A DNA stretch of 64,000 nucleotides from Nemertoderma westbladi (taxonomy: Eukaryota > Animalia > Xenacoelomorpha): assembly GCA_032718475.1 (NCBI GenBank), contig JAUCBJ010002693.1, positions 1 to 64,000 on the forward strand, in the 5' to 3' direction. The position numbers and the translations under genes are program-made. The notes beneath the pieces are model-generated. The model was not told the origin of the DNA, ran no database searches, and saw only the letters and a program-made list of their open reading frames with translations. Below, one piece after another: positions 4,372-61,100 of this stretch (position 1 is the first letter of the stretch; each line of letters begins with the position of its first letter).

Positions 4372-7300
4372 GTAAGTTGATTAGGTGTATAAAACTGCCA
4401 AACAATTGGAGGCCAATACTTCCTCACCATTTTTAGCACTATTTAGCAAAATAGTTTGATTTCAAAAAGACATTCACGTACCATTTGTCTTTTATTCTCG
4501 AGTCTATTTAATTTCTAGAAGAAATTTAATAAATGAATATAAGGACACCAATTATAATGCCTGTGTGTTTGGAGCTCTTCATCCGATCTGTTCGCGGTAT
4601 TTCAACTTTCCATAACGCGAGTTGAATATTTTTGTATTTTATTAAAATTGATTATTCCGATATTACTACTGGGTGCGGGACCATGGGTTTTGGGCACATT
4701 CTATAAACTGGGGGCGATTTATGGGCGAATTTTGGGGCAACTTACAGGGTACGGGAATAATTTCATAGTTATAAGGGCCAGGGGGGGATGGAAAATGCAA
4801 GCAGTATTCAGGTTAGCCTGAGTACTATTAGGCCCTGGCCAACTTCCTGCTGTCTGTAGGGGTGGATTTGGTAATGCGCCAGGCCTAAAGGACAAGGACT
4901 GCCCTTAGCAGTCCCTGGCCAACAGCAGCCATTACGAGACTGAAAAGAACTCGGACCGCTGACTGCTTGTGTCAGGGATTTGCGACGGGAAACGACGGCC
5001 CCTTAGTAGCCAAGCCGTTCTGGTTCTCGATGATCGAACCCTTCGGGGTTCATGAGGGGTGGAGCGGACACGCGAATGGGTGGCCAACTAACGACTGCCC
5101 CCTGAGCTAAGCCGTACTGGTTCTCGATGACCGATCCCTTCAGGGTTCGCGAGGGGTGGGACGGACATGCGAAAGGGCTGGCCACAGGACGGGTTTGACG
5201 AGGACTGCCCTTAGCGGTCTCTGGTCAACGGCAGCTACTACGAGACTGAAAAGAACTCGGAACGCTGACTGCTTGTACCGGGATCTGCGACGGGAACCAA
5301 CGACAGACCCCTTAGCCAAGCCGTACTGGTTCTCGATGATCGTTCCCTTCGGGGTTCGTGAGGGGTGGAACGGACACGCGATGGGGTCGAAAGACAAAGG
5401 ACTAGACTCGACTAGACTCTACTGGCCTACCGACTGTTCGGAGCAGTTTCTCGGCTGCCGAAGCGACTACGAGCCTGAAAGGGACTCGGAAAGCCTAGGT
5501 GGTTGGGTTTCTGTGATGAACCGACGGACCCCTAGCCAAGCCGTTCTGGTTCTCGATGATCGAACCCTTCGGGGTTCGTGAGGGGTGGAACGGACACGTG
5601 AACGGGTCCACCGACACGACAGACTCCTAGCCAAGCCGTACTGGTTCTCGATGACCAATCCCTTCGGGGGTCGAGAGGGGTGGTACGGATACGCGACAGA
5701 GTCTACCGACTGGACCGACCCTTAGCCAAGCCGTGCTGGTTCTCGATGATCGTTCCCTTCGGGGTTCGTGAGGGGTGGAACGGACACGTGACAGGGTCGA
5801 CCGACACCGACACTACGGTACTAAGACTAGGACCGAGGGAAAATCTGGGGAACATTAGGTAGGCTAAAATCTGAGCGAACAGTGGATAATTAAATAATAT
5901 ACTGTAGGGATTTATATTATCGTGTATAATTATTGTGAATATTTGGTGTATATTGATTTGGGGAAGCCCAAAATTATTCTTAATCAAGGTTCAACAGAGT
6001 TCAGTTACATTAAAGAGTATATCCAACTAATGCAGCTTTTTCTCAACCGCAACCCTGCATCTCAGAAATCATTCCTTCTCCAAAATCAATATCCGGTGAC
6101 TGGCCGGGGCTCAGTGGTCTGTAAAGTCACGTCGCCAGCATCGGCGTTTTTCCCCCCTGGTGTTGGGATAACGGCAACAAAATTAAGAATAATTAATGCG
6201 GTTAATTTTGACAGGGTGTCAAAATTAAGAATAATTACGGTCAACTTCAACTGGTGGAAGTTGAGAATCCTTCAATACTCTTCAAAACTCTCTACGTGCT
6301 TGCCAGCACCCACTACGAGGAAACTCTGGTATTTGAGTTGAGACGAAGTCGTGGTTTAATTAATCAACAAACTCGATCTAACCAACTCATAGTCGGCAGA
6401 TCACATATTTGGAGAGTTGTTAACAGGGAATGGAAGTATCGATCACACCCATTGATATAATCCAAGTTGAGCCAGGAATCTGGCACGTCGAAGTTGAAGT
6501 ACAAGGAACGAACGTCGGACGATTCAGGATTACCGTTCGGGTGGTCCAAGCTGAGTACAATACCTACGAGGAACTGTTTTATGACATCGCGTATCTAGCT
6601 ATCGACGAGGCGTTACAATGACGACAAATAACGTATCCGATACCGACGAGATGGATCACCACACAGACTCGGAAGCCGACGAGGTACCAAACGTCAAGAA
6701 CATGACCCATCGGCTAGGGGCTCTTAAAGGCGGAGTAACCCGAGCGTATCAACGGATGGAGAAACAACTCAAGGGAGTCAAAACCCCCCTCAATGAGGTA
6801 CAAACTCAGCTTCAAAGTATCCGAAATATCCTACAGCGGTACGAAAGAATGATACAGGCGTACCAAGAGCTCGTTCCCCCCACTGATCAGGAAAACTACC
6901 CCAAGTTGGAAGAACACGTTGTACATCTAGATGGGTTCCGCAAACAACACCGGAGGACCCTCAGCCTTGTGAGAGGCTATGAAGAACAGTATTACAAGAG
7001 GGCTGAAAGAACAGACGCGGAATCAGTACGATCCTCCAGCATCAGGACAGCAGTACATCGAAAGAGAACGGGGTCCGCTAGAAATCAGCACTCCAGCGCT
7101 AGGAGCGAGATATCCGGCTCAGCGCGCAGTTCTCAAGGGGCGCCGCCACTCCGAGACCAACTGCGAGAACGGAAGGCATTAGCCCTCAAAGCTCGGATGG
7201 AAGATGAGTATATTCAACTACAAGCCGAGCAAGATGTATTAGCCGCCGAAACACAAAAGCGAGAGGCCGAACAAGCGGCCGAACGGCAGGCCGAACAACG

Positions 7301-10300
7301 CGAACAGGAGGCCGAACAACATAGACGAGAGGCCGAACGGCAGGCCGAACAACGCGAACAGGAGGCTGAACAACATAGACGAGAGGCTGAACGGCATGCC
7401 GAACAACGCAAACAGGAGGCCGAACAACGCGGACGAGAGGCCGAACGAGAGATCGAACAACGTAAATGGGAAGCAGAAATGCGTAAACAACACGCCGAGG
7501 CCCAAGCAATTCTCATCCACAAAAAGAATGCGGATATTGCAAAACTCGCGGAATACGAAGCCGCACTTATAGAACGAGATATTCAACTCTACGAGGACTG
7601 GGAAAGGGATATAGATCAGGAATATGAACCAATCCCGGTACCGGAGTTAGAAAAGTCATTTACACCGACAGCGGCGAACTTTCCGAAACCCGAGATCCCG
7701 CCTACCAAACAGTCTATGCTATCGGCACAAGCACCGGTGTTCCATCCCCCACCGGCTACGCTAAAGAATGATGAACCTTATTTCCCATCCAACACCACGA
7801 CAGCGAGTGTACCCAAGTACGAGCCTGAAAAGGACTCGGAACGGGACGCCACTCCCCGATCGAACAACCCATTTACATCAACACCACAAACTCGTAGCCG
7901 CGTCATTATTAAAACTCCACCTATTATTGATCCATCAAGTATGGGAGTGAGTGCCAATAACTATAACCCTCCGAGTCACTCCAGTTCAGACGACGTCAGC
8001 ATCATCCGGGCGTTGGAGAACCGCCTTGCCATGCCTAAGATGGAGATTCGCACCTTCGAAGGAGATCCCGTCGATTACCTCAGATTCAAGAAACGGTTCT
8101 TTGCGCAGATCGGATCAACGGACATAGCCGACGCACAGAAATTGGTATATTTATCGCAATACTTGGGTGACAAACCACGCAGAATTATTGCATGTTTTGA
8201 AGGAGGTTCTCATGAGGCATACTATGACGCATGGAAAACTCTAGATAAAAGATACGGAAATACTGGAACTATAATTAATAAAACTCTAGAGAGACTGATA
8301 CAGGACGCGGGATCACTAGGGGACCCACAGAACATACAGGAATTCTCCGACTCTATGAAGGATGCCTACTATACTCTGAAACCCTTAAATAAGGAGGACC
8401 AGGTGAACAACATTCTAAACCTCCGACAGATCGCCCGGAAGTTCCCCGGATGGCTACAAAGTAAGTGGGCTTATAAATGTGTAGATCTCCGGCGCAGACA
8501 TCCAGATCGAGATCCTAGCTTCCTTGAAATGTCGGCATTCCTGGACGATATCTCCGAATCCATGAATGACTCGATGTTTTCAAAACATAGTCTCGCAAAG
8601 TTGGACGGAATAGAGAGCAACTCCAGGAGTAAGATAACCCCTCCGAAACCGAGATTCCGCCCCCCACCGGTAAGTACGATGGCCATTACCATGGCCGAGG
8701 ATTCCGACGACGAAGACTACGAGGAACCGACATCCGCCGAGGAATGGGCATGTTATCTCGCGAGTTGGGCACCCGAAAGGGAAGGCATCACAAATTCCCT
8801 GCTCTGTCTCTTCTGTGGGGAGAAACATAAAGTGGAATTCTGCAGAAAGTTTCAGTTCGCCGAACTCGTCCCACGCTTCGAGGCGATAATGAAACACCGA
8901 GGATGCTTCCGGTGTCTTGGAACAGGTCACTATGTTCGGGAGTGCGACCAAAGATCATGCTGTGCTGTCTGTAACGACCAACGCCATCACACGCTCCTCC
9001 ACATCCCCGCGAACTTCGATTTTACTACCCTCCCCTTTCGGATCGAAGCCAGGCGAAGAGGAGAAACAAACCACGTCTTCAAAGGAACCCGGACAACCCA
9101 ACGGAGAGAAACCAACCCGTTTAAAATCTCCACCGATACACCACAAGTAACAAATATTTCGGCCACGATTAATCTTATAAATCGCCGCTACATGGTCTTC
9201 GCAAAGGTAATCCCAGTAAGGATCCAAGGAGTCGGCAAATCTTTGACGACACTCGCGTTCCTCGATAACGGGTCCGACGGAACCATCATCGACCGGGATT
9301 TCCTCGAGCAACTCGGCCTAGAATATGAACCTTGTAAACGGCCCATACAAACCATCACCGATAACAGAGAGGTAGAGTCCGGGGAGGTGCAACTCCAGAT
9401 GGAAGGAGTGATGAAGGGCTACGAAACGGCTAAGTTAACCATCAAGAACGCCTTGGTACACACAGACCTCCGGGTGCGGTTCCGACAATCAGCCGAGTAC
9501 CCCCCCTCATACAATTGGACCGAGACGATGTAGACCTGAGGTGTCCGCAGTTGGACGTAAACCGTATCACCCTACTGATCAGACTTGATACACCGGAACT
9601 ACACATCCCCACCGGAGATATCGCCCGATCTATAAACCAGGATGACGGATTTTATGCTGAACGAACAATAATGGGATGGACACTCTGCGGCATTAAGGAG
9701 GAAACTACGGACACCTATACCTACCTTCCCAAATGTCAGATTAAAGAGAATGTAACCTCTGTGGGTTATTGCTCAGCTTCGGATCTTGACGAGGATTTGT
9801 TTCTGGAAACCGAGAAAACCCAACGAGAGATGACGAAATATTTTAATTTGGAGACCCAGGAGTTCGCGGAAAAGGACGAAAACCCATCCGAAGAGGACCA
9901 ATATTGTATGGACGTTCTCGACCAGGCCACGTTTAAAGACGGACACTGGTGTTCACCTATGTTATGGAAGGACCCAAACAAACCAATGGCAAACAACGCC
10001 AGCATGGCACTTAGGCGACTTAAAGGGATTCTACGCCGGCTGAATGACCAACCCGAGATAAAGGAGAAGTATAATACCGTAATCCAAGGATATCTCGATG
10101 ATGGATTAGCAGAAATGGTACCACGGAACGAACTGCAAGGTGGTAAAAGAACATATTATCTCCCAACCCACTATGTAGTAGAAGCCCGCAAAGGTGGGAA
10201 AATCCGAGTGGTAAATGATGCTGCCGCTATGTACCAGGGCGAATCCCTAAACAGTCAACTTTACACGGGACCCAACATATATAGCACACTCATCGGCGTA

Positions 10301-13300
10301 TTGATCAGGTTCAGGGAAAACCGGGTAGCATTCACCTGTGACATCAAGGCCATGTTTCATCAAGTTCGTACGTTACCAAGAGACTCGGACTGTCTACGTA
10401 TCCTATGGACAGATAAAACGCTTACTCAACAGGAGATTAGCCAACTCACGATAAAGGACGTAGACGTAATGCGTATGGTCGTCAGGATCTTCGGCGCTAA
10501 GGACTCGCCGGTAGCATGCAGTGACATGCTAAAGAGGACGGCAACTATGTGCGAAAACGAGTTCCCTCCAACCGTCATAGAAACCATTCAACGATGCTTC
10601 TACGTGGACGACGGATGCGACGGCGCGGATAATGTAGATGAGGCGTATCGGCTAGCAATGGGGATGGTAGAATGTCTAAAGAAAGGAGGGTTTCCGCTCG
10701 TGAAGTTCAGATCCCATGACAAAATACTTATGGAAAAGTTTCCGCAGGACATCCGGCTGGAAAATAACAAAATGTATTCGGAGGATGTGGAACACCGTGT
10801 ACTCGGAATTGAATGGGACATAGAATCAGACGAATTCATCTTCAAATATAAACCCTTACCCAAGCCTATGACAAAAAGGGGATGTTTGTCGATAAAAAGC
10901 GCCATCTTCGACCCACTAAATTTCATATCTCCAGTAACCTTGGCCGGAATGAACCTGATTAAGGAAATGTGGATAGAAGGACTGGGATGGGACGAAGAGC
11001 TCCCCCCACACCTCAGCGTCAAATGGAGAAAATGGACGGAGCAGCTCGAACACCTACATCTTATGCGGATACCTAGACCGTTCTTCCTCGATAAATTGCC
11101 CACAGATATCTTCCAGCTCCACACCTTTTCGGATGCTTCAAATACCGGAATCGGCGTAGTCACCTTCTTACGGAGACTAAGTAACGATGGAAACGGCGAT
11201 ACAAGCTTCTTATTCTCCAAAGCAAAGACAGTATCCGGGGAATTCGTAGCAACGATTCCGAGACTCGAGCTACAAGCTGCGGTTTGGGCAGTAAGACAGA
11301 ATCGCATGGTCATGCGAAATCTACGGATCCCCATAGAATCTCAACACTTCTGGGTCGATTCGAGTATAGTTCTCTATTATCTCCACTCTCCATCACGGCG
11401 CCACACCACGTTTGTTGCAAACCGAGCCACGGAGATTAAACAGTGTACCGGCCGAGAACAGTGGCATCACGTGAACAGGAAGGAAAACCCAGCGGACTTA
11501 TCAAGCCGAGGCGCCACCCCAAAACAACTCGGCAAAAGTAAACTCTGGCTTACAGGCCCGGAATTCCTACGGCAGCCACAATTAACATGGAGTACACGAT
11601 TCGACCCCGAGCTCGATAGCGGAAAATACTCCGAGGACGATAAAGAGATCCGTAAAATCCATCGAAGCAACGCGGTGGAAATTTATAGTTGTCTGACTGA
11701 GCCTGCAAAGGACTCGGGCAGGCACTATAACGTCGCGACGATCACTCAACTAGCGGCGTCTTTACATCGGTTGATCGAGCGAACTTCATCCATGAGACGG
11801 CTCGTCCACCACGTTATAACCCTTCGCAACTTCCTACGGTGGAAAAACAACAAACCGATAGTTCAACGGAATATACAAGAACTCATTATCGCGGAGAAGT
11901 GTATTGTTAGATATGTCCAGAAAGAAAGTTTCCCCGATGAATGGGAACAACTTAGTGCGGGCAAAACATTGAAACCGGACAGCCCAGTCTACCAACTGAG
12001 ACCAATGATGGGAGAGGACGGACTGATCCGACTGAATACCCGGATGGCAAACGCCCCGGTCGAATATGAGGTTAAATACCCGGCGCTTCTGCCCGGAACG
12101 TCGACACTAGCTAAGCTATTAATTCTACAATGTCACGAGGACAACCACCACGCAGGACAGAATTGGATTATAGCTAATATAAGACAAAGATATTGGATCA
12201 CCCACATCCAGCCACTGATCCGGAAAGTGTTGAAACGTTGCTTCACCTGCAGACGTTACCTAGCGCCACCAATCACCCAAAAGATGGCCGACTTACCAGC
12301 CACCCGTCTACAAGCGGATTCCCCACCATTCTACGTCACCGGAGTGGACTGTTTCGGACCGTTCACAGTTATTGAACGACGATCCAACATCAAATGCTGG
12401 GGAGCCATCTTCACCTGCCTGAGGTCTAGGGCAATTTACCTAGATATCGTGGTAAATCTGACACAACACGCATTCATCAACGCTCTGCGTCGGTTCGTGG
12501 CGAACAACGGGACATGCCGCCACATGTATTCCGATAATGGTACAAACTTCGTGGGAGGAGAAAGAGAACTTAGAGAAGCGATCGAGGGATGGTTTACCGA
12601 TAACACCGCATCCCAAGTCTGGAAGGAACACCAGATACAGTGGCACTTCCAGACCCCCTTAGCACCCCATACGAGCGGGGTATGGGAGAAACTGATCGAC
12701 CTAGTAAAACGATCCATGCGCGTCGCTCTAGGTGATACCCGGGTAACCCATGACACCCTCCGCACAACATTCTGCGAGATCACGGCTACCCTGAACAACC
12801 GACCCATTGTCCCTATCCGCGACGACCCCACAGACCTGGAGCCCCTCACTCCTAACCACCTACTGGGGAGACCCAAAACCCACGTTCTCCCGGAAACCAT
12901 GTTCCCGGATCCCAACGAGATCGCGAAACATACAAACTGGAAAAAGGCCCAAGCGTTGGCAGCGCATTGGTGGAGAATTTGGGCCCAGGAGTACCTCATA
13001 ACCCTCCGGACCAGGAGGAAATGGAACAACACCTACCGGAACGTCGCAGTTGGCGACATGGTACTAGTTAAAGAAGATCTCAAAGACCGCGTTCACTGGC
13101 CTGTGGCGCGGGTCGTGACCATACACCCAAGCAAAGACGGACTTGCGAGGACTGTGACGATACGAACGTCAAAGGGCCACTACCAACGCCCTATCCAGAA
13201 GCTGTGCCTTCTTGAAGGCAATGATAGCGGTGACTCTACGAGAGGTGATAAGATCCCTACTCAAGATCCTGCTGTGGACATTGGTGACAATTACAAACCC

Positions 13301-16300
13301 GTGTAACCCTTCTCATCATGTTGACAAACTCTTATAAAACTGTGATTTATCGACAACGAGTTATGGACCCCCTTTAAACCAACTGTAACCACGCAATGGT
13401 ATTTGTGTTTCCTCGTGTGTTATGTGGAGTCCAGCATCACCCTGCAGATGTTTCGACTGACGCAGGGTCGTTTATGCATTGTTTACCCTGATTTTGGTCA
13501 TCAGGACCTACGATATTGGATTATTGGAAATGGAAAAGATTTGAAGTGGAATTCATTGTATTCATCGCAGTATGTTATGTTGTCCGTTGCGTGCGCAGTT
13601 CGGGGCGTAGGCGGTGTAACAAGTCCAGCTGTAGGCGCAACACCCCCTCTATCCCGTTATTCTGGTGGGTCCATGGTGCATCCACATGACTTCGACGATA
13701 GAGGGTTTTATGTTTCTCAGTCGCGTTATTCTGGTGGGACCGTTACGTGGATTTTGGGGCGTAGGCGGTGTAACGAGTCCAGCTGTAGATCCCAGAATGT
13801 TGCGTAGCCCCATCCCACATGACTTCGTCGACTGAGCTTTATGTTGTTGGGAGTGTTATTCTGGTGGGTCCCTGGTGCATCCACGTGACTTCACTCCCAG
13901 CGTCGTCATTGTCCGTTACGTGCGCAGTTTGGGGCGTAGGCGGTGTAACGAGTCCAGCTGTAGATCCCAGATTGCCGCGTAACACCCCTTCCACGACAAA
14001 GATTAACCAAAGAAAATGATTGAATATAGTTGGAAATGATGAAAAGGATCAGACAACTCTGCTATAAACCTGAATGATGACGCGTATGCTGATGAAAATG
14101 AAATGATGCGCACCCTGGTGCTGCGCTTATAACCAATGATGATAGCCGGGGGGCTATAAACCCAATGATGATGTGGAAATAAATAAATGTGAAATAAATG
14201 GTGGAAATAAATGTTGAAATATATGTGGAAATAAATGAAATGAGATAAAATAATAATGAAATGAAAAAAGACAAAAAAAGGTATAAAAAAGTCTAAAGAA
14301 AAGAATTGGAAAAAAGAAAGGACAAAAAGGTCATAAAAAACTGGTTGGATATTAATGTATAGCTATAGTAACTGTAAATGCTGAATGTATTAGCAATAAG
14401 ATGATAGATGTCTATATAGCAATATTATTTAATAAACTGAATTAAATAAAAAACTGAATTATTCTGCTATCGCTATAGTTTCAGACTTTCTGGACTTATA
14501 ATTAACTGATCTAATTTGTAACGGATATAATCGTAAATATGGACCCAAATCGCCAAATTATCGGCGAATTACGTAACACGATAGATCTACTGGAATATTC
14601 GCAACCTGGATCCCCTGACTTTGATACAAATTGGAGCACCCTGCTAAATGAGAACATGCGAGTCATTAAATTCACCGGGCGAGAGGGACCGGATTCTAAG
14701 AATCTACGAGCCCTCCGGTTAGCCGATGCTAGTACGAGACTGAAAAGAACTCGGAACGCAAAGGCAACCGGAGGGGACGATTCGTCGTTTTGGGAAACGT
14801 TCCGGCAGAGCGTCTACAGATCCCGATGTTTGATCTACGACAACGAGGGAAACGCGACGCCCACCTCGAAAGCGATTACGTTGGCGAGATGTCAAAGTTT
14901 CGTCGACGACAAGAGTACGTACCTCGCCCACTGGGGAAACCTGTCGGAGTGTACGGCGACGCTTCGAGAGGAACGCGTATCGATTATCCAGAACCGAGAC
15001 GACTACCAGGAAAAGTACGGGGCGAAAGAATACGGTCGATCCTTAGTCGTCGTCCTCGGAACCCTGGACGGTTTGGTACTTGTGTGCCGAATATTCCCGA
15101 CACCCAGACAGGAAGTGCAGGCAGCCGGAGCGATCTGGTTGCTGCCTCCAGAAATCCAAAAGATCCTCTTCGACTTCGACGTCATTAAAATCGGGTCGGA
15201 TATCAAGGCGGACGTCCGGAACGACTACGCGAACGCCCCTGCAGGAAGAAACCGACGAGACGACCTCAACGCCCTTAGCCATTGCATCGACACTCAAACG
15301 CTACTAGCCTGGTTACGATTCGCCGAGTTCATGTGAGGATTCCAAGAGGTGAGACCGACGAAATCCGGGATCGGCTACCTCGCTGTGCTAAACGGCGGTA
15401 TCGACTTCAAACCCCAGAAATTCCGGGACTATAATAAAATATACGGTGGATACCCGGGATTAGAAATAAAGAGCGAGCGAGAGGGTCGATGGAAGGACGT
15501 TGATCGGAAGTGGACGATACACCAAAGGTGGGAGAATCCCGATCGACGGAACTACGTTTACGTCGTTATGGAGTGCTACACCGTCGCTAAGTTTATCTGT
15601 AAAACTCTCGATAACCTTATTACGGCGGTCCCCCTTTCCTTCGTCGACTACGACTGGAACGAGGTCATACACCACGCGTTCAAAGCGGTCGAGAACATCG
15701 CACCGGGAGAGACTAAAACGCTCGCCGTTATCGATTCCTGGGACGAGAGCGGGCCTTACGACATCCCTACGATTACCAAACTTCTCGGTGCGGAGGAGCC
15801 TCTGATCTCTTCGGAAGGGGAAGAGATATGGCTAAACGAGGGTGTTCTACTCTCCACCCCGAAGCGACAACTCGAGCCGGAGGCCGCGTATGGACCGGCC
15901 GCCAAACGGGTTGCCTCGGCCGAACCGATGAAGAGAGCAGGCGTTTACACCCCACGCGGCTCCGGTAGCCCCGCGAGGGAGGTAGCCACTACAGCTGCAT
16001 TGAGCGACTTCGGCAACATATGCCAACGGTTATCCCCGTATCCTTTCCCGGGTGGCGAAGATTGGTCGTCGGAGATTCCGAGTACCAGCCACCAACGGAC
16101 CCGCTCAGCGATACTGGTCGAGGAGGGCCCCAGCGATGCGCCGACCCCCGACGATCTCCTCGGTATCCCTCCGTCTAAAACCCCGGCACCTCTTCGCCGA
16201 CCAGCGGTGGCTACTACACCCGCCGTTCCTCAGGACCCTATGCGACTAACCCGTTGGTACGCCGAGCAAACTGAATGGATCCACCGCCAGAAACGGTCGT

Positions 16301-19300
16301 CTGAGTTGAGACCAGCGGGACACAAAGAAGGTTATCGGAGCGAGAACCTACTACGCAAAAGCCTAGCATTCCGCGGGCTACCGACCACCGCGAATATTCC
16401 GAAGAGCGACCGACGACTCGAGTATCACGTCGGCGTCCCGATTCCGATATTTCCTGGTCGAGAGATGCAGTTGGAGGTATGCGGCGACTGTGGTTCGGAG
16501 CAGTGCCCACGCGGTAGAAGGAATCGGGTTACCGATTCTTGCCTCCAGCTCCTCGGGATACTCTATTGCCCATACTGCGCGACATCGGGCCACGACGTTT
16601 CCGTCTGTCCGATCCTTTATAACCTCTGCACCACGTGCGGTTTCCGTGGACATTCCTCTAGCCCCCGCTGCTATATCAAATGTCCAACCAAAGACGTTAC
16701 CGCTATGGGAAATATGGTCATGTTTGAAACATACGCAAACAGCCACTTAAAGACCAAGGTTCGGAGAAACGCTCGGAATATCGCGCAGGAGATGGCGTGC
16801 GGGTATTTCTCTTTCCCGGAACGCCTCCACACGTCGGCCACGCTACCTTTCCATTACGTGGATCTGCTACTGAGCGCCGGATTATTCGGTCCATTTGAAG
16901 TCATTAGACGGTTATACTCGTATAAAGAGGAGTTCGGTGACGGAGAGTGGTTCCTAGAGGCAGGCAAGTCTGAGTTGGAGAGACGAACCGACATGATCCC
17001 TATGCCATCGAAAGGAAGAGCCGCCAGGAGACAAGCCGAAGCGTTACTCACGATGGACGTTGACGCTCCTCTACCAGCCATAGCGATCGATGAGAGTCGA
17101 CGGGCGAAGAGACGAAAGGCGTATCAGAGAAAGAAATAGTGGATCGGGATATTCCAGGAACATTTATCAAACATTTATTTTTATACAAACTCTAGGCCAA
17201 ATTAATTAAAAACTATGCAATATTAAATTTGGGTTTTTTATATTGGGAATGACCTACGCAAACTCAATCGACCGACAGACTTCACGAAGGTCATTGGGGG
17301 GGACTGTTCGCGGTATTTCAACTTTCCATAACGCGAGTTGAATATTTTTGTATTTATTCAAAATTGATTATTCCGATATTACTACTGGGTGCGGGACCAT
17401 GGGTTTTGGGCACATTCTATAAACTGGGGGCGATTTATGGGCGAATTTTGGGGCAACTTACAGGGTACGGGAATAATTTCATAGTTATAAGGGCCAGGGG
17501 GGGATGGAAAATGCAAGCAGTATTCAGGTTAGCCTGAGTACTATTAGGCCCTGGCCAACTTCCTGCTGCCTGTAGGGGTGGATTTGGTAATGCGCCAGGC
17601 CTAAAGGACAAGGACTGCCCTTAGCGGTCCCTGGCCAACAGCAGCCATTACGAGACTGAAAAGAACTCGGACCGCTGACTGCTTGTGTCAGGGATTTGCG
17701 ACGGGAAACGACGGCCCCTTAGTAGCCAAGCCGTTCTGGTTCTCGATGATCAAACCCTTCGGGGTTCGTGAGGGGTGGAGCGGACACGCGAACGGGTGGC
17801 CAACTAACGACTGCCCCCTGAGCTAAGCCGTACTGGTTCTCGATGACCGATCCCTTCGGGGTTCGCGAGGGGTGGGACGGACATGCGAAAGGGCTGGCCA
17901 CAGGACGGGTTTGACGAGGACTGCCCTTAGCGGTCTCAGGTCAACGGCAGCTACTACGAGACTGAAAAGAACTCGGAACGCTGACTGCTTGTACCGGGAT
18001 CTGCGACGGGAACCGACGACAGACCCCTTAGCCAAGCCGTACTGGTTCTCGATGATCGTTCCCTTCGGGGTTCGTGAGGGGTGGAACGGACACGCGATGG
18101 GGTCGAAAGACAAAGGACTAGACTCGACTAGACTCTACTGGCCTACCGACTGTTCGGAGCAGTTTCTCGGCTGCCGAAGCGACTACGAGCCTGAAAGGGA
18201 CTCGGAAAGCCTAGGTGGTTGGGTTTCTGTGATGAACCGACGGACCCCTAGCCAAGCCGTTCTGGTTCTCGATGATCGAACCCTTCGGGGTTCGTGAGGG
18301 GTGGAACGGACACGTGAACGGGTCCACCGACACGACAGACTCCTAGCCAAGCCGTACTGGTTCTCGATGACCGATCCCTTCGGGGTTCGAGAGGGGTGGT
18401 ACGGATACGCGACAGAGTCTACCGACTGGACCGACCCTTAGCCAAGCCGTGCTGGTTCTCGATGATCGTTCCCTTCGGGGTTCGTGAGGGGTGGAACGGA
18501 CACGCGACAGGGTCGACCGACACCGACACTACGGCACTAAGACTAGGACCGAGGGAAAATCTGGGGAACATTAGGTAGGCTAAACTGAGCGAACAGTGGG
18601 TAATTAAATAATATACTGTAGGGATTTATATTATCGTGTATAATTATTGTGAATATTTGGTGTATATTGATTTGGGGAAGCCCAAAATTATTCTTAATCA
18701 AGGTTCAACAGAGTTCAGTTACATTAAAGAGTATATCCAACTAATGCAGCTTTTTCTCAACCGCAACCCTGCATCTCAGAAATCATTCCTTCTCCAAAAT
18801 CAATATCCGGTGACTGGCCGGGGCTCAGTGGTCTGTAAAGTCACGTCTCCAGCATCGGCGTTTTTCCCCCCTGGTGTTGGGATAACGGCAACACGATCCA
18901 TATAGACATCCGTATAGAACTAATTAGCTGGTATCGACCCCAGTGGATAAAAGGGTGAGTGCACCCTGGAGAGATACAGCATTACATTTTTTTTTATTCC
19001 TTATTATAAACTTTGTTGTTTTTCTTCCTCTAGGTGGTAACGCCTTACAAAGCCAAAAATTTACTCTCGAGTGGTCCTGGATTTACATGGATACAAAGGA
19101 AGTTATAGTTAATGAATCCAATGCTTATATCGATGTGAAGTTAATAAGGAATGGCTATCTGGGAGAGCAATCTGTTATAGGTGAGTGAAAGATGCTAAAC
19201 GTGGAAATATATTAAATATATAAATTGTTGGTCTATATTTTGAATTATTAATTTGCTTGAAACAAAACAACTTTATGAAGCTTTATTTCAAAAAATGTGC

Positions 19301-50292: not shown

Positions 50293-51541
50293 TGTACGCG
50301 CTTTTGAAGACCTTTAGCAGTTTAACCTGCCAAAATTTATATGTCTTTTGGTTTATAAATAGACTTTAGAAGTTGACAAATATTTAATACCAATAAACAC
50401 AACATTAGCAGAAGCCAGCCTAGTGCGCGTCCATTCACCCGCTGGATATACCCGGGAGACTGGATTCTGAGGGCTTAGATTATTATTGCAGTGTAAGCTT
50501 ACTGTATTATTCGATTGATCGTTAATAAATAATTTCTGACCAATATTATTCACTTTCGGGAAATATTAACAGTTCCTTTAGGACGTGGCGCTCTATCTAG
50601 GTAAACAGAGATATGACTTATACTAATCACAACGGTAAGTCGGTAAGGCTTATGATTCACGTATGAGGCGCATTCTTTAGGAAATGCTTAGTTATCAGCC
50701 ACAATCATGCACACTACCGGTAACACACAATACTGCTCACTAATTTGCCGACCGTCAATGTATTTTATCATATATAAAGAGAACAGCAACGGACTCATGT
50801 AGTGCTTATCAAATAGCATTAAATTCACTACAAACCACAATAATATAAGTCGCAATCGCTATATATAACCCGTCTCTCTAACCTGTAGTGTATCAAGAAA
50901 ATTGGGAAATTTGGGTTCTTTATATATGTTCTCCAAATAATATTCAACCAAAACACAACAGTAAACATTAAGACGGTATGTTAAGTTATGATATGAACTG
51001 ATTTGGACCGATATGTGATATGAGTTGTTAAGATAACAGTTATACGCTCTATAATTTAAGCCTACTAATATTTCTTCTAAAGTATGAAAACGAATTGACT
51101 CTAGAGCCGGTGTTCCTGGCCTAGATAGCAACAACACAACGGTATCACAAAAACAGTAAGACTGAACACTCCTAGTATGATCGGCCGAATATCTACACGT
51201 CGACAGAAAAAATCGCTCTGATTGGCTCAAGCCAAACAAAGAACCATGCGTCCAATGGCTGTTTCCATGCCAGCAACCAGCTGCTAGATGTCGCAATCTG
51301 AATCATCAAGGCCAAGCCGTGTAAAGGTATTTGGTGCATTGCGGGTTTTTTGCCTTACCATGTCCGCCAAAGCACGTATATAGAAGAATGACTTTTATGT
51401 CCGTTAAAACACCTGTAACGGTACCTTGCGGGCGAGGGGAATATATATACAGTTAGAGAGCCTTTTAGAGTATTCCAGCGCCTGGGGGGAAACTGGATTG
51501 CAAAGCAAAGGGGCCAGTTATATCCCACAGAAGCTTTTACA
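50293..51541 (-). repeat. 3' LTR of element 2
   Basis: Minus strand TGTAAAAG...CGCGTACA preceded by purine-rich TGGGAGCGG; the 51541 boundary is inferred because the partner LTR is truncated. Confidence 0.7.
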
Positions 51542-51812
51542 CCGCTCCCAGAAAATGGGATTTGAGTCTATAAAATATACAAAATCACAGTTTCTAATAT
51601 ACGTAAATACTCTAAACAGTTAGTCTTTCTTGCGCGGACGGCGTTTACGCAGTTTTTTAAAGCTAGCCAGAGTCCTTTTCTCTTTGGGGCGAGCCACTTT
51701 ACAAGGAGGGCTATAACTCCTGGGTGAAGGGTGCAATATGATTGCATCAGAGGGTGTAGGATTATGGTCGGTGTATCCGCCAGTCGAAGTACCGGGTTGA
51801 TTGACATCAATG

Positions 51813-53050
51813 TCAGGGGAGAGGAGCTCGTTTCAAGACAGCCGCTCTTACGGGTCCTTTACGAGTGGTCTGAATGAGGGCCGTGGGTGGACCATAGGCA
51901 GTTAGAAACCTCCGGGGTTTAATGGTTCTTTCCAACTCGCGTTCGCGGGCTCGGTATTCGTAAGGCCGTCGATATACTTCCTGTAACTCGGGGTGTGAGT
52001 TAACAAACAAGTCTCCATAGTCCGGATCCTGACGGATATAATTGATTAAGTTATAGGAATGAAGGTCGCTAGGATTAACACTCCTGAGAAATTTGCGTAC
52101 GAATTTGGTTGAAATACATTCTCCGACTCGCTTCAGTAGCTCGTAACTCGATATGCGTGATTTCTGTTCAACCGAAGCGAATAGATAAGGATGGAACGCA
52201 TAAACTCCTTCGTAAGCGCGTCCGGGATAATAGCGATGGCGCGAATCACAATGTAAATCAGCGTTCGCTTCCCAAGCTCTGATGTAACGTAGTGTGATCA
52301 TTTCATCTACGCTTTCCAAATCGTGATTAAAAGGGCAATCGAAACTGGCGTGTCCCTTTAGTTGACAATGGTGACATTGAGTCATAAATTGAGGGCAAAC
52401 CGCAAAAATGTGCAAGTTATTGAGTCCGCAATACGCACAATAAATTTCCATAGTCGGTTGTTCTTGGAAATAGGAACAGCGGACGTTTGTGTCCACTGCG
52501 TATCATGGTCTCTCGATGCGCATAACCGACAACGTTGTCTAGAAACATAGTTGGCATGTCGATAATCGTACGCAGTGAGACACTGTGGACCTTGATACCA
52601 TTCTATGATGTAGTCGTTGTCGCTGTTCCGGGCGCGATAGGCTGAATCTCCTCAGATTCTAGGCATATTGGTTCGTCTTCCCAGTCTGTTACGAATAGAA
52701 TTTTCGTGATCTATTCTCGGTTTACCGTTACAACTCCGCTGGGTATGATATTTAAATAGAACCATTTCCCTTTCGGTGTCTACATCGTCCGTATCATGTA
52801 AATCGATAGGATGGCCGGTAGTTAGGAAGTCCATATACGTACTATTACGATGCGTATAGCGAGCGGTGAATTTTCGATAGTCCAATTCACGCGTAAGTTG
52901 CTCTTGGGACATCGGCGGTTCGATATAACGACCATCGTCCTCCGTAATGGTTGGATCGGTTTCACCGCGTATCAAGCTATCCACAAATGCTTGTAAAGGT
53001 AGAGTATATCGCTCCCTGATACCAAGATCATCTTCTATCAGCTCCGTCAT
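51813..53050 (-). pseudogene. Degenerate ORF3 homologue (zinc-finger region)
   Basis: CRLCASRDH...YCAYCGLNNLHIFAVCP...CHHCQLKGHASFDC...WEANADLH aligns with element-1 ORF3; in-frame TGA at 52652-52654 and a frameshift near 52496. Confidence 0.75.
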
Positions 53051-54681
53051 ATCTGCTATCTGAGTTTATTAATATCGAAATGAGTTTATGTTTAGGCGAG
53101 CGGACGTCGCTGCCTACCTCTCTTTGCCCCCGGACAGTGGGATTCTCAGCGCCGATGTACCGTCGTCGCGGTGTTTACGCCAACATGTAGCAACAGCACG
53201 ACAACGATAACCGGCACAAGTCACTCCACTGTCCGTCCCAAAGGCTTGAATCCACTTTAGGTTCTTTCTATAGGAGAGTTGGGCTACTTTCACAATTGCG
53301 ACTAGCTACTGTAAACACACCTTAGCAGTAACATTCACCTACAAACGCACAAATTCCACACAACTGTCACCAATTGTACACATACAGGCCATTTGTCCGT
53401 TAGTCAGTGCCTTCCAGAATGTCACGTTATTACTGTGTATCCTTGGATACTAACAGTGTGCTATGTATTCTCTATGCTATGCAATGTGACAAGCTTTCTA
53501 TTGTTCTTTTAACTTGCTTCTAATTCTAGCGTGGGTGTTGCTATGGTGACATTATGGAATGCTAGCGGTAGAATTAGGGTAATTCTCATGCATACAGATC
53601 TGGGATGCTATTTAATAATAATTCTTTAATTGTCAATATCCTCTTTATGCATGATTTTATTAATTTTATCGGCTATTGACTATATGTTGGAGATTCTCGC
53701 ACTCCAATACACTCAATAGGATGAATCTCCGCTCCCATGATCTATTAATTAATGGAATTTTGGGGATGTTATAAATTGCATAAAACGACAATTTATGAAA
53801 TTCATTTAAAATATGAATTTAAATTTATTCCCATGAATTTTATTATTTGATGTTAAAATTGACACAATTTGATTCCAGAGCAGGTCTGGGGACATAGGAT
53901 CCTTAATTCTATGAAATTTGTCTTTTAAGAATATCGGTAAGTGCTACGATATCTTAATCGACTAGAATTGTTAACGGATCTGAATTTTACAGATTTTACT
54001 AAATATTAAATTAATATTTAAGATGGGCACCGATTTATTCCAGAGCTTGTCTGGGGACGTTAACCACTGATTCTAGAATTTGTCTTTCAAGTATATCGGT
54101 GGGTGCCGCGATATCTTAATCGACTAGAATTACAGATGGTCAAAAGGTTTAACAGATTTATTTGCATTTTACGCTACTGTTAGAGGGACATCACGCTACT
54201 ATATGTATTATTTAATATAAGGTAGAAGAGCAATATCGCACGAAGCAATGTCAGTGTGAAGAGGCAAGTCGTTTCCAAGGTCTACCCAGAGCTTGGTTTA
54301 GCTGAGACACGAGGATCTGAACTTTGCATTCCTAATACTCTGCCTACCAATAATACTTAAATATAGTAGGGGCTTTATTGTACTTTAATAAGTACGGACA
54401 TTTCATCTTACTGTAGTCACGTATTTATAATATGATACGGACAGTAAGGAAAGAGAAAAATAATTATTTTCTCGCCGTCGCACTAAATATATATTATAAG
54501 TAATTACGTACGTAATAAACACTAATATATTGCACTAATCTACTAAATAATCACCAAAATAACATTCTACTAAATAAAATTAAAGAAAACGATTATAATA
54601 AAATTACATAATAATACATACATAAATATAAAATAAAAACAAACATAAAATGATATAGTCACACGCCCACTCCATATGTTA

Positions 54682-55002
54682 TTACGTTATGGAGTCCCTA
54701 GATATTTGTCGGATTAGGGAAGTGGTCGTAGGAAGAGTATCTTGCCTTCCATAGTTTCCGGACAGTTTTCGGTCTCTTTCCAGTAAACATAAACGACCAG
54801 CTGGGCGATTGAGTTGTTGTGTTACTTTCTCCGCTCCCTTGGCCTGTCTAATCTCCGCCGGGGTAAGATGAGGAGGCCATTCTTCTTCTTCTTTACTTAA
54901 GAAGTCGGATCCACCTAACCAGCCTGGAGTATCTATCAGTTCTTGAGGAGTTGCTCCTCTGGAAGCGATGTCGGCTGGATTAATCGTCCCAAGGCAATGT
55001 CT
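54682..55002 (-). pseudogene. pol: Fused pol remnants (RNase H end joined to integrase C-terminus)
   Basis: In frame with gag after the TAG: RHCLGTINPADIASRGATPQELIDTPGWLGGSDFL...WP...LNRPAGRLCLLE. Confidence 0.85.
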
Positions 55003-58000
55003 CTATTGATCTACATTGGAGTTAATATCGTCATTATCTGAGGAGTATGGTGTTCCCTCAGTTGGATCGTCCACATCACTGCTCTCCACTTCCCATTCCT
55101 TTACTTGGTATACCTGTTGTTGAGGTAATCTCTCTTTGAGAGTTCTACGGGAAGGGCCAGTGAAGTACCAACCTACTCTAGTTCTTACCGCATAGGTTTG
55201 TAGTGGCTGCGGTTGAGCAGGCCGTTTCTCCAATGTCTCGAGCGTCTCATGCGCGTTTTGGCCGATGAGTATTTGCACTCCAGGATAATCTGTCTGGAGC
55301 CGAGGTATCTTAAGATGTTGGATGCTCTCATCCTCGTCCCAATTATAAAGGTCTGCTTGGGTAGCAGCTAAGTTCTTTATAGCCACCATTTTTACCGACC
55401 TTATACCTTGTGCTCCTAATTTATCCTGGGGGGTGGACAACACACCTACATAGTAGTCTGCCGTTAGGGTAGATTTCCAAACCTGCATAATTCCTGACAT
55501 ATTCAATTTAGTCCGGAATTTGGGTTGTCCAGCAAAAATATCTTCGGCTAGTTCTTGATCGATGAATGTTCCTGTGCTGCCGAAGTCAAGGAGGGCATTC
55601 ACTATGTAACTTTTGTTAGGACCATGAACTCTTACCTGCACTACAGGAAATTCTCTGATTCCTACGTTGGAAGTTGGAGCTTTCCAAGATGGTTGTCTGG
55701 CAAAAGTAGTTGGGGGGAACTCATTGTCGGTGTCCTTTTCATAAGTGAGTGCTCGATACACTGAGGTATTTATTAGGTAACAGGATTCGTTGGCGTCGGA
55801 GAATTCGTCAGTATAGAATCCTTCCATCTCAGACTCTTGATCAGTGTCATTTACATCACTGAATTGGACATGTAGTTCGGGCTCACTTACCTGACTCGGG
55901 GTGTCTCGTTCGAACTCACTGTGTAACAAGATGTGATGTTTCGCGCCACACTTTGCACACTTTACGTCGGAGTAACAGGTTCGCCGTTGGTGTCCTGATC
56001 TGAGGCAATTATAGCATAACCGCTTATTCCACAGGACTGTACGTCTGTCTACAAGGGATTTCTTTAGAAATTCAGCACACGCACTCAAACGGTGGGGCCC
56101 GTCGCACAGCGCACATTTTGGTTTGATGTTACTCACTTTACCTTGGGTAACGTTATGCACTCTCGTTCTTTCTTCGGGCTTTCTTCCGTGAATTCTCTTA
56201 GGAGACATAGGAGGAGTTGTTGTTACCTGTTCTCTCCTGTCACTGGTTCGAGACTTATATTTACTTACGTCTTTATAGGTCTTGTTGTCATAGTAAGATT
56301 TTGCTGTGTCTTTCCCGCTGTCCTCTTCTTGAGAAGCTTGGCTTTCGCCGTCGTCAGTATAACACACTGGTATTATCCTTCTCCTAGAAACGGGTTTCTC
56401 ACTTACCTTATTTTCCGATGTTTTCTCTCTGGACTGCTTTATGAGTTGTAATTTTACTTCACTATCTAAGAAGGACATGAGATCAGCCATAGTAGGGCTT
56501 CGTCGTTGTTGTTCATTCATATACAACACTTTCTTGTCCCAGCGTGTACATACTCCACCCTTTGGTAAAGTAGAGACTACTGCTCCAATAACCATGGAAC
56601 TCTGATATTCATGAGACTTACCTAACCAGTCCAATTGTCTACAGATCTCCTGAATCTCATCGGAAAACTCTATAATCCCGCTACTAAGGAAGTTTCGGGG
56701 GGCTACTAATTTTGCATACAAATACTTAGCTATGTTATCCTTGTTACCATACCTGATGTTTAATGTATCCCAAACTTGTCTTAATCCTTCTGGATGTCCA
56801 ATAAACTTTAACGCCATTAACTTGGGAGGTCCTTCCAAGCACTTGATGAGGAACCTAAGTTTCTCTCCGTTAGATAGTACAGAGTTCTGTATGCTGTCTT
56901 TGTAATATTCATTGAAAGGTAACCATTTCATCTCATCTCCATTGAATTTGACGATCTCTCCCACTTTGACCGCTTGGCGGGCTTCTGTTCTAGCCATCTG
57001 ACGCGTAAAGCTTTCTTGGGCCATCGTGTTATTTAATATCGAATTATCGGCATATAAATTTCTCGGATCATTATCAGGTCTATAGGGAATATCATTAACA
57101 ACAGGTTTATAATCACCCTTAATAGGGTTTGCTATAGGAGTTTCTACTTCACTAGCAGTATAGATGCGTGTAGGCTCCACACCTTGCGCATGTAATACTT
57201 CAGACCTAACAGGTTGACACAATGTTACAGGGGGTATTGATATACCATTTTGTATATTGACTAATTTGTCGCGTTCTAGCGCGATACTTTGCTGCACTTC
57301 TTGCAATTCGGCCCTACCTTCCCTTACTGTTCCCTTAAGTTGGTGGACAGTCTCCTGCATCTGTCCGAGCAGGAGATTCATCCCCCGCCGTCCCTCCTCT
57401 ACCCACTCGACCGCCGAAGCGGGAGTCGCCAACATTGTAGCGGGCTGACGCGGGACGACGGGAGACAAATCTTTGATTTCTCTCTCAGCTTCCAGGACAG
57501 GGATATTCTCATGGACTGTTCTACCGGGTACAGGCAGTGTAGTACTGTGTAGAGGGAATTTAGAGTTAAGCTCTGGAAGTACAGGGGTCTCTAGCACAGG
57601 AGTGACTTTGTGAACGACAGGCCTAATTATTTCAGGCTCATCAACTATTGTAGGGAGTCTTTTGACCTGAATAATTTGTTCTGTAGGTTCTGTACCACCT
57701 AAGTCTGTGCTAGCTAGTTGTCTTCTAACCGCTGGGGGCAAATCAGGCAATTTGTAACGGTGAGATGTTTTTCTACGCCTGCTTAGACGAGATCTATTTC
57801 CTCCGCCTTCAGGATCGGTGGTCTCGCCTTCCTCCGATGATGTGTATCCTTGGCGCTTGGGAGTAGATCGACTCCTCATCTGCATTTGACTAGCAGTTAA
57901 CTGTTTATTTATGCAGTCTTGCGTCTCTTGAAGATTTTCCAACTCCAGTTGTGTGATCTCCTCAGACGCTCTCCGTTCTGCTTCTGCCACCGCTGCATTT

Positions 58001-60199: not shown

Positions 60200-60735
60200 A
60201 AAATACAACCCAAACGCTGGCAGACTACCACCAAGCCTAAATAAACTACAGTATGTGCAGATTCCAAAATGGTTAGTTAGTATGCGTTCTAACACGGTAG
60301 TACGACTTAATCTTTAAGAGGGGATTGACCTTACATCTATGGCTGCCCCAACTTACTAACTGGCACTCTATCGGACAAACTCTACACACGCAGCAATCTC
60401 TTCAGACCTAATAATAGCTAGACAACAATCCAGCCTACAAAATATCTGAGTAATAACTATTACGGTACCTGAACAGACCACACAAACAAACACAGACCAA
60501 AACGCTGGCAGAATACTGTCAAGCCTAAATAAACTACAGTATGTGCAGATTCCAAAATGGTTAGTTAGTATGCGTTCTAACACGGTAGTACGACTTATTC
60601 TTTAAGAGGGGATTGACCTTACAGCTATGGCTGCCCCAACTTACTAACTGGCACTCTATCGGACAAACTCTACACACGCCGTAATCTCTCCAAACCCAAC
60701 AACAATCTGACAACAGTCCAGCCTACAATTATCTG
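60200..60735. repeat. ~288-bp tandem duplication in the element-2 leader
   Basis: AAACGCTGGCAGA...CTCTACACACGC at ~60212 and ~60500. Confidence 0.85.
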
Positions 60736-61100
60736 AACAATCTGAGCAGACTTACACGTCTTCAGCTCAATATTAACTTACTAGGAAATAAAACTGACAG
60801 AAATAAGTAAAGTCTCAATAAAAACCAGGGCTGCAGTCCCTGGTTAAGATACTAAGACCTACCGGTATACAATAATCAAAATCGAATAATACTAATGTAC
60901 TTATACTGGAAGTACCGGTTAGGACAGTTGGGCCTACGGACCTACAGAAGTACCGGTTCTGGCAGTTGGACCTACGGACCTACCGCAGTACCGGTTCTGG
61001 CAGTTGGGCCTACTGACCTACAGAAGTACCGGTTCAGGTTTACCGGTCGACCGGTACTTTCAACTTTATTGCTTACTGCAATAAAGACAATAACTGTTAT

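Follow-up and report, generated by a model that had tools for sequence, protein, structure and literature searches.

A BEL/Pao retrotransposon of Nemertoderma westbladi with candidate RNA docking modules and a likely accessory RNA-binding protein

Little is understood of how BEL/Pao retrotransposons replicate (PMC8742986), and the means by which LTR retrotransposons lacking Rev export and select their unspliced RNA are largely open. The stretch of DNA analyzed here (the window; 64,000 nt of the forward strand of Nemertoderma westbladi contig JAUCBJ010002693.1, assembly GCA_032718475.1) carries an element, E1, for which a preliminary description had proposed a protein-RNA regulatory system. What do the repeated hairpins and the third gene of this element do? 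The explanation that we favor, at a probability of roughly 45%, is that the hairpins would act on the RNA as docking modules that serve to protect, export or package it, and that ORF3, the product of the third gene, is likely an accessory RNA-binding factor.

By its sequence, E1 (4589-18893, + strand) is a young, multi-copy BEL/Pao retrotransposon of 14.3 kb with LTRs of 1.59 kb:

4589..6179, +, 5′ LTR (TG...CA), 98.8% identical to the 3′ LTR (14 mismatches)
6618..9533, +, gag-protease ORF with DUF1759, CCHC fingers and aspartyl protease (domain matches)
9434..13306, +, pol with RT (YVDD), RNase H and integrase, Peptidase_A17 and DUF5641 (domain matches, motifs)
17296..17304, +, polypurine tract (sequence)
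17305..18893, +, 3′ LTR with nine modules as in the 5′ LTR (repeat comparison, module profiles)

A 5-bp target-site duplication, CGATC, flanks the element (4584-4588 and 18894-18898). The pol order is PR-RT-RH-IN with YVDD, DAS and integrase motifs present, and the best pol matches were BEL/Pao proteins at 32-37% identity, the named ones being from fish, coral, oysters, echinoderms and a tunicate. E1 has these features of the Belpaoviridae: an LTR-flanked provirus, a target duplication, a polypurine tract and BEL/Pao-type Gag and Pol as judged from domains, motifs and best matches. The gag/pol frame break lies inside the protease region and is missing from some other copies. While the LTRs, the DUF1759 and CCHC fingers of gag, the pol order and the polypurine tract are those of the family, E1 departs from the Belpaoviridae profile of 4.2-10 kb elements with LTRs of 0.2-1.2 kb (PMC8742986) in its length, its longer LTRs, its RNA module arrays and a third gene that is not env-like. 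In Belpaoviridae the 5′ LTR is followed by a primer-binding site of 18 nt that pairs with tRNA-Arg or tRNA-Gly (PMC8742986); no TGG adjoins the LTR in E1 or in E2, a second element of the window. Self-priming was not indicated, as the E1 leader holds no complement of the first 7-12 bases of the transcript. Rfam and ARAGORN scans found nothing inside E1 or E2, and neither E1 pol nor the core of the A hairpin described below matched the viral contigs searched.

Nine hairpin modules had been proposed for each LTR, and each was indeed found to contain three A and six B hairpins:

4913-4975, 5219-5281 and 5448-5510, +, A hairpins of the 5′ LTR (z -3.2, -3.6 and -2.0 against shuffles)
5003, 5098, 5306, 5526, 5621 and 5716 (span 5003..5799), +, B hairpins of the 5′ LTR (z -0.7 to -3.3)
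17632-18226, +, A hairpins repeated in the 3′ LTR (A profile)
17725-18507, +, B hairpins repeated in the 3′ LTR (B profile)

The A hairpin is built from a loop-E-like internal loop, a CGAG/CUCG stem and, in the LTR copies, a GAAA cap; all A copies have a GNRA cap, and the copy in pol carries the GCAA variant. The B hairpin combines a GAU bulge, a tandem G.A/A.G kink-turn pattern, a UUCG cap and a 4x4 lower loop. The bulge, the G.A/A.G pairs and a C:G pair at -1b:-1n were present in 12/12 B copies of both LTRs, and C:G at 4b:4n in 11 of the 12. All 12 copies hence contain the core of the standard kink-turn, outlined as a 3-nt bulge, G.A and A.G pairs and two flanking helices (PMC5061560, PMC5689011). 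The search patterns were defined post hoc from the tested sequences; with this limit, the strict kink-turn pattern with full helices was found in five of the six 5′ LTR B copies and in at most 6 of 3000 shuffles, the loop-E-like pattern in at most 4 of 3000 shuffles for each of four A copies tested, while 2-5% of shuffles contained the relaxed kink-turn pattern, which also occurred 11 times within 45.6 kb of flanking sequence. The outer stems of B3-B6 retain pairing despite differing sequence. In three B copies the folding does not exceed that of shuffles (z -1.1, -0.7 and -0.8). The C:G pairs at -1b:-1n and 4b:4n resemble Kt-7 and differ from box C/D kink-turns, where 4b:4n is G:C. Unlike Kt-7, U4 and box C/D, the kink-turn sequences of E1, known here from sequence alone, come six per LTR in a retrotransposon transcript; among the papers listed in the literature search, titles and abstract openings yielded no report of kink-turn arrays in LTRs.

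Copies of A had also been proposed inside all three ORFs. When a profile was made solely of the three A copies in the 5′ LTR, it found full modules in gag and ORF3, and in pol only the apical hairpin:

7800..7860, +, A module in gag (E 1.4e-6; z -2.1), canonical in its AGUA/GAA loop and closed by a stem of its own
11685..11730, +, partial A module in pol (E 0.034; z -4.6), with GCAA cap and without the loop-E-like loop
14710..14775, +, A module in ORF3 (E 1.6e-7; z -6.6), with its own 10-bp closing stem

The three copies share a common core within unrelated closing stems that still pair: 90% of the cells in these stems were paired, a value reached in 1 of 500 shuffles, and their covariation score was reached in 2 of 500. 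The ORF3 copy lies in a different reading frame from those in gag and pol, so two frames are used in all. These unrelated yet pairing stems, together with the two frames, argue for selection on the in-ORF copies as RNA rather than as protein. GNRA hairpins in general were not enriched in gag or pol.

Ahead of ORF3, where a separate hairpin family had been noted, there are in fact two, given here together with putative signals for transcription and splicing:

4770-4775 and 4799, +, TATA-like box and likely transcription start (sequence; one contig end)
5857..5864, +, candidate splice donor directly after the last B module, the only motif match between 4799 and 6620
13588, 13741 and 13916 (cluster 13588..13985), +, three C hairpins (repeat comparison)
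13645, 13712 and 13845, +, three D hairpins, of which D2 (13712) nests C2
14470..14484, +, candidate splice acceptor after an A-rich tract, 55 nt before the ORF3 start (motif)

The folding of the C and D hairpins ranged from z +0.2 to -3.6, C1 (+0.2) being no better than shuffles. One contig of run X4, a weak and single case, has a loose end before 4799 that matches a template-switch oligo. With a start at 4799, all nine LTR modules would lie in transcribed sequence, and the leader would be 1819 nt long with 16 upstream AUGs. No splice joint was found among 15 joints listed of 64. In E2 and in L001, another ORF3-family locus, the start of ORF3 likewise follows a tract that ends in AG.

These modules could instead form a self-assembling RNA architecture, in which the A caps dock in the B lower loops and the kink-turns bend the helices into compact or dimeric RNA, ORF3 being a separate matter; dimerization or internal ribosome entry past the long, AUG-rich leader would be possible uses. 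Besides that leader, the GNRA nature of all A caps, the pol variant included, speaks for such an architecture, as do the C:G pairs at -1b:-1n and 4b:4n of B, the pattern given for kink-turns that need nothing but ions to fold (PMC5689011). The B2 lower loop (CUAAG/CAUG) further resembles the 11-nt GAAA receptor (CCUAAG/UAUGG), at whose bulged base a U-to-C change is described as tolerated (PMC11381326). However, 10 of the 12 B copies read CCAAG instead of CUAAG. Given the geometry of the receptor, this would presumably disturb its U.A pair. Moreover, the kink-turn arm is capped by an inert UUCG loop and the in-ORF A copies lie kilobases away from any B, and we regard this architecture as rather unlikely.

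The preferred reading, docking modules with an accessory factor, depends further on the nature of ORF3:

14539..17139, +, ORF3, 866 codons with one in-frame stop, in env position
14974, 15187 and 15550, +, ExoI, ExoII and ExoIII of a DEDDy-like domain (homologue alignment)
16480-16680, +, three zinc knuckles after a low-complexity linker (motif, alignment)
from 16723, +, conserved C-terminal motif (alignment)
17098-17136, +, basic tail (composition)

The in-frame stop (TGA, 15334-15336) is private to this E1 copy: it was absent from other copies in three of four runs, the fourth having no depth there. ORF3 had been described as a DEDDy exonuclease with CCHC knuckles in place of env. Its position and three Cys/His knuckles (two of them CCHC) were confirmed, whereas the DEDDy-like domain was recognized indirectly and without the ExoI acids. 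No convincing membrane helix was found, the best 19-residue hydropathy (2.08) falling in a strand of the nuclease-like domain; the hydropathy scan thus revealed neither the signal peptide nor the membrane anchor of an envelope protein, and no env family matched. Pfam gave no match and word-index searches no relatives, while a HMMER search returned eight matches forming an unnamed family. Its members retain D-x-E, D and Y-x3-D/E motifs. The ExoI D-x-E is intact in three of the five homologues with the domain, and its D and E are partly replaced in P0123 and P0126; in ORF3 the aligned residues are Q and R. The ExoII D is retained, and ExoIII reads Y-x3-E where the active DEDDy pattern is Y-x3-D. 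Because the ExoI acidic pair is missing, E1 ORF3 is likely a pseudo-nuclease with an inactive exonuclease domain; two aspartates after the aligned positions may provide another ExoI register. This probable inactivity also weakens a 3′-trimming role for E1 ORF3.

The ORF3 family profile matched EXD2 at E 0.0036, which was not repeated with a six-sequence profile. Its top PDB match was the RNase D of Trypanosoma brucei, TbRND (7C42/7C45; E 0.0005), mostly from the fingers. A fold search with ORF3 models, which were poor (pLDDT 32 and 40), gave no match at E <= 0.001. Atlas look-alikes were DNA_pol_A_exo1 clusters (0.91, below the recognition threshold), the top cluster being mostly from Rotifera, and for the zinc region the leads were DUF8363 (0.86) and AIR2-like knuckles (0.75-0.77). 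This region varies least within the family, being present in seven of the eight matches plus E2, and its knuckles resemble those of Lin28 and HIV NC. At least 10 K/R occur within the last 40 residues of 6/9 family proteins, ORF3 included. With these features, ORF3 is likely an accessory RNA-binding protein.

The relation of ORF3 to the modules was assessed in the second element:

50293..61735, -, E2, a divergent non-autonomous BEL/Pao relative without A, B, C or D modules
55003-58830, -, gag-protease ORF within E2
53859..54147, -, spacer hairpin unit of E2 in two copies (z -2.8 and -4.3)
51813..53050, -, broken ORF3 of E2, in which the zinc region and the C-terminal motif but no exonuclease-like domain were detected

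E2 has almost no pol. Its LTR segments (635 bp) are 100% identical and yet its ORF3 is broken, and therefore ORF3 is not needed in cis. As the preliminary description had stated, E2 shares the ORF3 zinc region (E 4.3e-9, profile built without window sequences) and has repeated spacer hairpins, although these are unrelated in sequence to the E1 modules. The expectation that ORF3 and the modules occur together failed at both other readable ORF3-family loci: E2 and L001 encode the zinc region without an A or B match, and L001 has no repeated hairpin in 3685 bases. The proposed protein-RNA system is thus partly supported, by modules that look like RNA-level elements, an ORF3 that looks RNA-binding and a precedent in CERV (see below), while no tie between ORF3 and these modules emerged. 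This tie is the weakest step of our explanation and is doubtful.

Family proteins without A/B also suit an ORF3 that acts independently as an anti-silencing or RNA-end factor, either an EXD1/Maelstrom-like pseudo-nuclease mimic or, in relatives, an active trimmer, the hairpins serving Gag or host proteins only. The three homologues that retain D-x-E are in line with this, and inactive piRNA-pathway nucleases and 3′-end processing have been raised for DEDDy ORF3s (PMC5408684, in part). Nevertheless, apart from the weak EXD2 match no connection by sequence with EXD1, Maelstrom or MUT-7 was found, and an A module is kept within ORF3 itself; such an independent role is rather improbable. Still less probable is an origin of the copies from one or two ancestral hairpins by template switching and unequal recombination, in which neither their number nor their spread, the in-ORF copies included, would have a selected role. 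The LTR repeats are tandem, with periods of 95 nt and 306 nt, and contig joints skip 306-716 nt between E1 modules, with a 342-nt back-step in the C/D cluster. Since contigs join module copies to one another, module number varies among E1 copies, which is expected from recombination alone. The B core is 10% diverged, and its covariation was not above shuffles (167/500). Against this, plain duplication would have copied the flanks, whereas the in-ORF A copies have new, unrelated stems in differing frames, and in B the loop positions vary no more than the paired positions do (24/34 vs 31/50 invariant). That B is SECIS-like, recoding the ORF3 UGA as selenocysteine, or that the modules are self-cleaving ribozymes, has a negligible chance: an AUGA/GA quartet is present in B and an in-frame UGA lies 5′ of it, but that UGA is absent from other copies and sits in a variable loop rather than at a conserved Cys, the B upper stem has 7 bp with UUCG and no apical AA, unbranched B cannot make a hammerhead junction, and no Rfam match of either kind appeared at E <= 1, the sole match of the window lying outside both elements. 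By-eye comparison with consensus features likewise led us to drop selenocysteine recoding, hammerhead, twister, HDV-like, H/ACA and ENE readings.

Under the docking-module explanation, the modules would aid the protection, export and packaging of unspliced genomic RNA, and ORF3 would likely be an accessory factor in the nucleus. The LTR kink-turns may bind a host L7Ae-family protein (Snu13/15.5K), or self-fold and compact the RNA ends; for B, the sequence points to these two at least as much as to ORF3. The A hairpins, which occur in the LTR and in all ORFs, could be dispersed binding or packaging marks for Gag or the ORF3 knuckles. Because it lies upstream of the candidate ORF3 splice acceptor, the C/D cluster would be present on unspliced RNA only; if any of the modules is an export element like RRE or CTE, this cluster is the foremost candidate. 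ORF3, whose mRNA is likely spliced, would use its knuckles to bind RNA as Rev or CERV does. HIV Rev/RRE exports unspliced RNA, and the same is proposed for E1 by analogy.

DEDDy ORF3s of other LTR elements and a Rev-like factor, CERV, are already known. An exonuclease-like domain is noted for some nematode Cer BEL elements, which our literature search did not confirm. DEDDy-type ORF3s occupy the env position in bdelloid Juno/Vesta LTR retrotransposons and Terminons; these are Gypsy-like, not BEL/Pao by clade names, and keep their catalytic residues, and Vesta2/5 have a zinc motif (PMC5408684, in part). In E1, by contrast, ExoI is lost and the conserved part is the triple knuckle plus the C-terminal motif; hairpin arrays like those of E1 go unmentioned in the available portion of that paper (PMC5408684). 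CERV of C. elegans Cer1 is a Rev-like accessory protein that exports unspliced RNA and joins an enzyme-like domain, thought to be inactive, to a cysteine-rich RNA-binding part, and its splicing, nuclear location and export role are reported as demonstrated (PMC10309623, in part). The likeness of ORF3 to CERV is one of description, with no sequence relation seen and with splicing, nuclear location and export inferred for ORF3, and Cer1 is Gypsy-type whereas E1 is BEL/Pao. In TbRND, CCHC fingers are described as supplying RNA binding to the DEDD domain (PMC7797062); that protein is active and cellular with a short linker, whereas in E1 ORF3 the ExoI acids are missing, the linker measures ~280 residues and a C-terminal motif is added.

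A bolder version, a complex BEL/Pao lineage whose genomic RNP is assembled through kink-turn arrays at both ends of the RNA that recruit Snu13/15.5K, loop-E/GNRA hairpins in every ORF that act as dispersed assembly signals and a pseudo-nuclease with a new triple-knuckle domain that exports RNA in the manner of Rev by recognizing the intron-only C/D cluster, is unlikely, though conceivable. If this four-part RNA code were true, no retroelement before it would have had a cis system based on kink-turns, and an unnamed protein family would gain a function; the LTR arrays, if true, would mean that a transposon uses RNA signals of the snoRNP/spliceosome type. The RNA motifs of E1 are short and have exact boundaries, so that they and the candidate protein domain lend themselves directly to tests in vitro, and the exonuclease-plus-knuckle family widens the accessory gene pool known from rotifer retroelements.

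The window holds a young BEL/Pao element with hairpin modules (E1) and a divergent, non-autonomous relative (E2), with the following features:

4589–18893, forward strand: E1, whole element
4589–6179 and 17305–18893, forward strand: LTRs of E1, starting with TG and ending with CA
6618–9533, forward strand: gag-protease of E1
9434–13306, forward strand: pol of E1
Between pol and ORF3: spacer of E1, 1.2 kb
14539–17139, forward strand: ORF3 of E1
50293–61735, reverse strand: E2

The LTRs of E1 are 98.8% identical, and the target CGATC is duplicated on both sides. A 530-bp direct repeat (99% identity; 3459–3988 and 22282–22811) flanks the element. Gag and pol were of BEL/Pao type by Pfam, and the best 120 pol relatives were 32–37% identical to E1 pol, those with names belonging to aquatic animals. 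The E1 family is multi-copy, because thousands of variant-rich contigs in two DNA runs (16390 and 7308) matched the element.

Each E1 LTR contains nine hairpin modules, in agreement with the preliminary description; three are of family A and six of family B. B is an unbranched 85-nt hairpin, composed of an outer stem, a 4x4 loop, a stem, a GAU bulge, tandem G.A/A.G pairs, and a 7-bp stem, with a UUCG cap in 11 of the 12 copies and UUCA in one. This layout is the standard kink-turn pattern (PMC5061560). C:G occupies -1b:-1n in all 12 copies and 4b:4n in 11, while 3b:3n is U.U in eight, C.C in two, and C.A in two. By the criteria of PMC5689011, the B sequence resembles self-folding kink-turns more closely than those of the box C/D type, although both types are bound by L7Ae proteins. 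Among 3000 shuffles of each copy, no more than 6 produced the strict pattern, and 2–5% a relaxed one. The B core is nearly invariant, with covariation no higher than in shuffles; the outer stems differ in sequence yet keep their pairing in B3–B6 only.

A has an A-N-U-A/GAA internal loop, which we take to be of loop-E or sarcin-ricin type, a CGAG/CUCG stem, and a GNRA cap. Copies of A were indeed found in all three ORFs: a profile built solely from the three 5' LTR copies matched ORF3, gag, and, weakly, pol. These copies have mutually unrelated closing stems, lie in two reading frames, and gave the strongest structural signal (1 of 500 shuffles as high for pairing, 2 of 500 for covariation score), in a test where related sequences alone can outscore shuffles. 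The separate hairpins ahead of ORF3 form two spacer families, C and D, with three copies each. No Rfam match was obtained for A, B, C, or D of E1. The only Rfam match in the window was tmRNA, far below the cut-off, from an inverted repeat at 47196–47486 (132 nt, 95% complementary, 27-nt loop) that is probably a MITE-like element. The window also contains satellite arrays (units of 22, 43, and 41 nt; 1–750, 41944–44753, and 46089–46834) and a ~280-bp element, bounded by terminal inverted repeats, that occurs three times (25542–25822, 27173–27457, and 32512–32792).

A transcript start at 4799, with a TATA-like box 29 nt upstream, is weakly hinted at by one contig end in sequencing run X4, preceded by what is presumably adapter. 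If this start is right, all nine LTR modules would be transcribed. In the same run, one contig terminates at 14289 in a stretch of A residues, as would result from internal priming or from a poly(A) site inside the element, and the interval 14170–14470, between the C/D cluster and ORF3, is A-rich with six AATAAA signals.

ORF3, read through its stop as X, has 866 positions and no Pfam match. HMMER found eight relatives among 1.84 billion representatives, none informatively named; four have exonuclease-like and zinc regions, one the exonuclease only, and three the zinc region only. ExoI D-x-E, ExoII D, and ExoIII Y-x3-D/E are kept in three of them. Of the proposed DEDDy exonuclease, a DEDDy-like fold is likely on sequence grounds, but catalysis by ORF3 is unlikely, since its ExoI residues are Q and R. 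The family profile matched TbRND, Lin28, EXD2, and HIV NC (E 0.0005–0.02); a second profile retained the knuckle matches and lost EXD2, and an Atlas comparison pointed weakly to DNA_pol_A_exo1 clusters. The conserved core of the family is the triple knuckle and the motif after it. In this copy the frame is uninterrupted from the zinc knuckles to the ORF3 end (16480–17139).

ORF3 was rejected as an env gene, in contrast to the third genes of BEL/Pao in the ICTV profile, which are env-like only (PMC8742986). DEDDy ORF3s are described in Terminons and in LTR elements of bdelloids (PMC5408684; PMC5718144; PMC6431247), and a Rev-like protein in Cer1 (PMC10309623). TbRND, which pairs a DEDD nuclease with fingers of the CCHC type, has the same nuclease-plus-knuckle layout as ORF3 (PMC7797062). 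Our literature search, to which most subscription papers were out of reach, found neither an LTR kink-turn array nor an exonuclease/knuckle ORF3 like that of E1 in BEL/Pao. Some nematode Cer elements may carry an exonuclease domain.

Co-occurrence of ORF3 and the modules, as expected for the regulatory system suggested for this 'complex' element, was not seen in either of the two other loci compared. E2 has the ORF3 zinc region and two spacer hairpins, as described previously, but these hairpins are unrelated to the E1 modules, and searches of E2 yielded no A, B, C, or D. Its gag-protease frame is intact at 1276 codons, pol is nearly all lost, ORF3 is broken, and the LTR segments are 100% identical. 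L001, the only locus of an ORF3 homologue whose DNA was recovered, lacked A, B, and any repeated hairpin. The E2 and L001 proteins are each only ~20% identical to ORF3, which leaves room for a change of RNA partner. In E1, E2, and L001 alike, a tract ending in AG lies ahead of the ORF3 start, a weak sequence sign of a spliced ORF3 mRNA; in E1 the candidate acceptor is at 14484 and a candidate donor lies near 5859.

E2 adjoins a LINE-type RT frame (48844–50313), and its 2.2-kb leader has tandem repeats of 38, 123, and 288 nt. The L001 homologue (L001:124–2025) carries its zinc module twice in tandem; 3' of it, L001:2152–3685 has a purine tract and TG, a possible LTR start, with an acidic open frame, possibly the start of gag, 1.2 kb beyond. 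Neither E1 (6180–6290) nor E2 (60990–61100, reverse strand) has a TGG-type primer-binding site beside the 5' LTR, and priming in this lineage may therefore be unusual. The first part of both leaders is A/T-rich and carries short hairpins or repeats.

The modules very probably act at the RNA level, and ORF3 is probably an accessory, RNA-binding protein; that it binds the modules directly is doubtful. An RNA-only architecture of the modules is unlikely, as is an independent role of ORF3 in silencing or end processing. Array length differs among E1 family copies, as seen from joints between module copies in contigs; neutral expansion of the arrays is nevertheless quite improbable. Modules serving recoding or acting as ribozymes can be given next to no weight. 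Of the two lesions in E1, the protease-region frame break is not common to all copies, and the ORF3 stop occurs in almost no other copy, which rules it out as a recoding signal.

We favor, with a probability of about 0.45, a combined picture in which B would act at the RNA ends, A would mark the genome RNA, and C/D would be an export-element candidate. B, at both ends, would bind a host L7Ae-family protein or fold unaided. A, along the whole genome RNA, would be a mark read by a zinc-knuckle protein. The C/D cluster would be removed by splicing from the ORF3 mRNA and is the best candidate for an export element, its placement being like that of the IAP and MusD elements, which sit downstream of pol.
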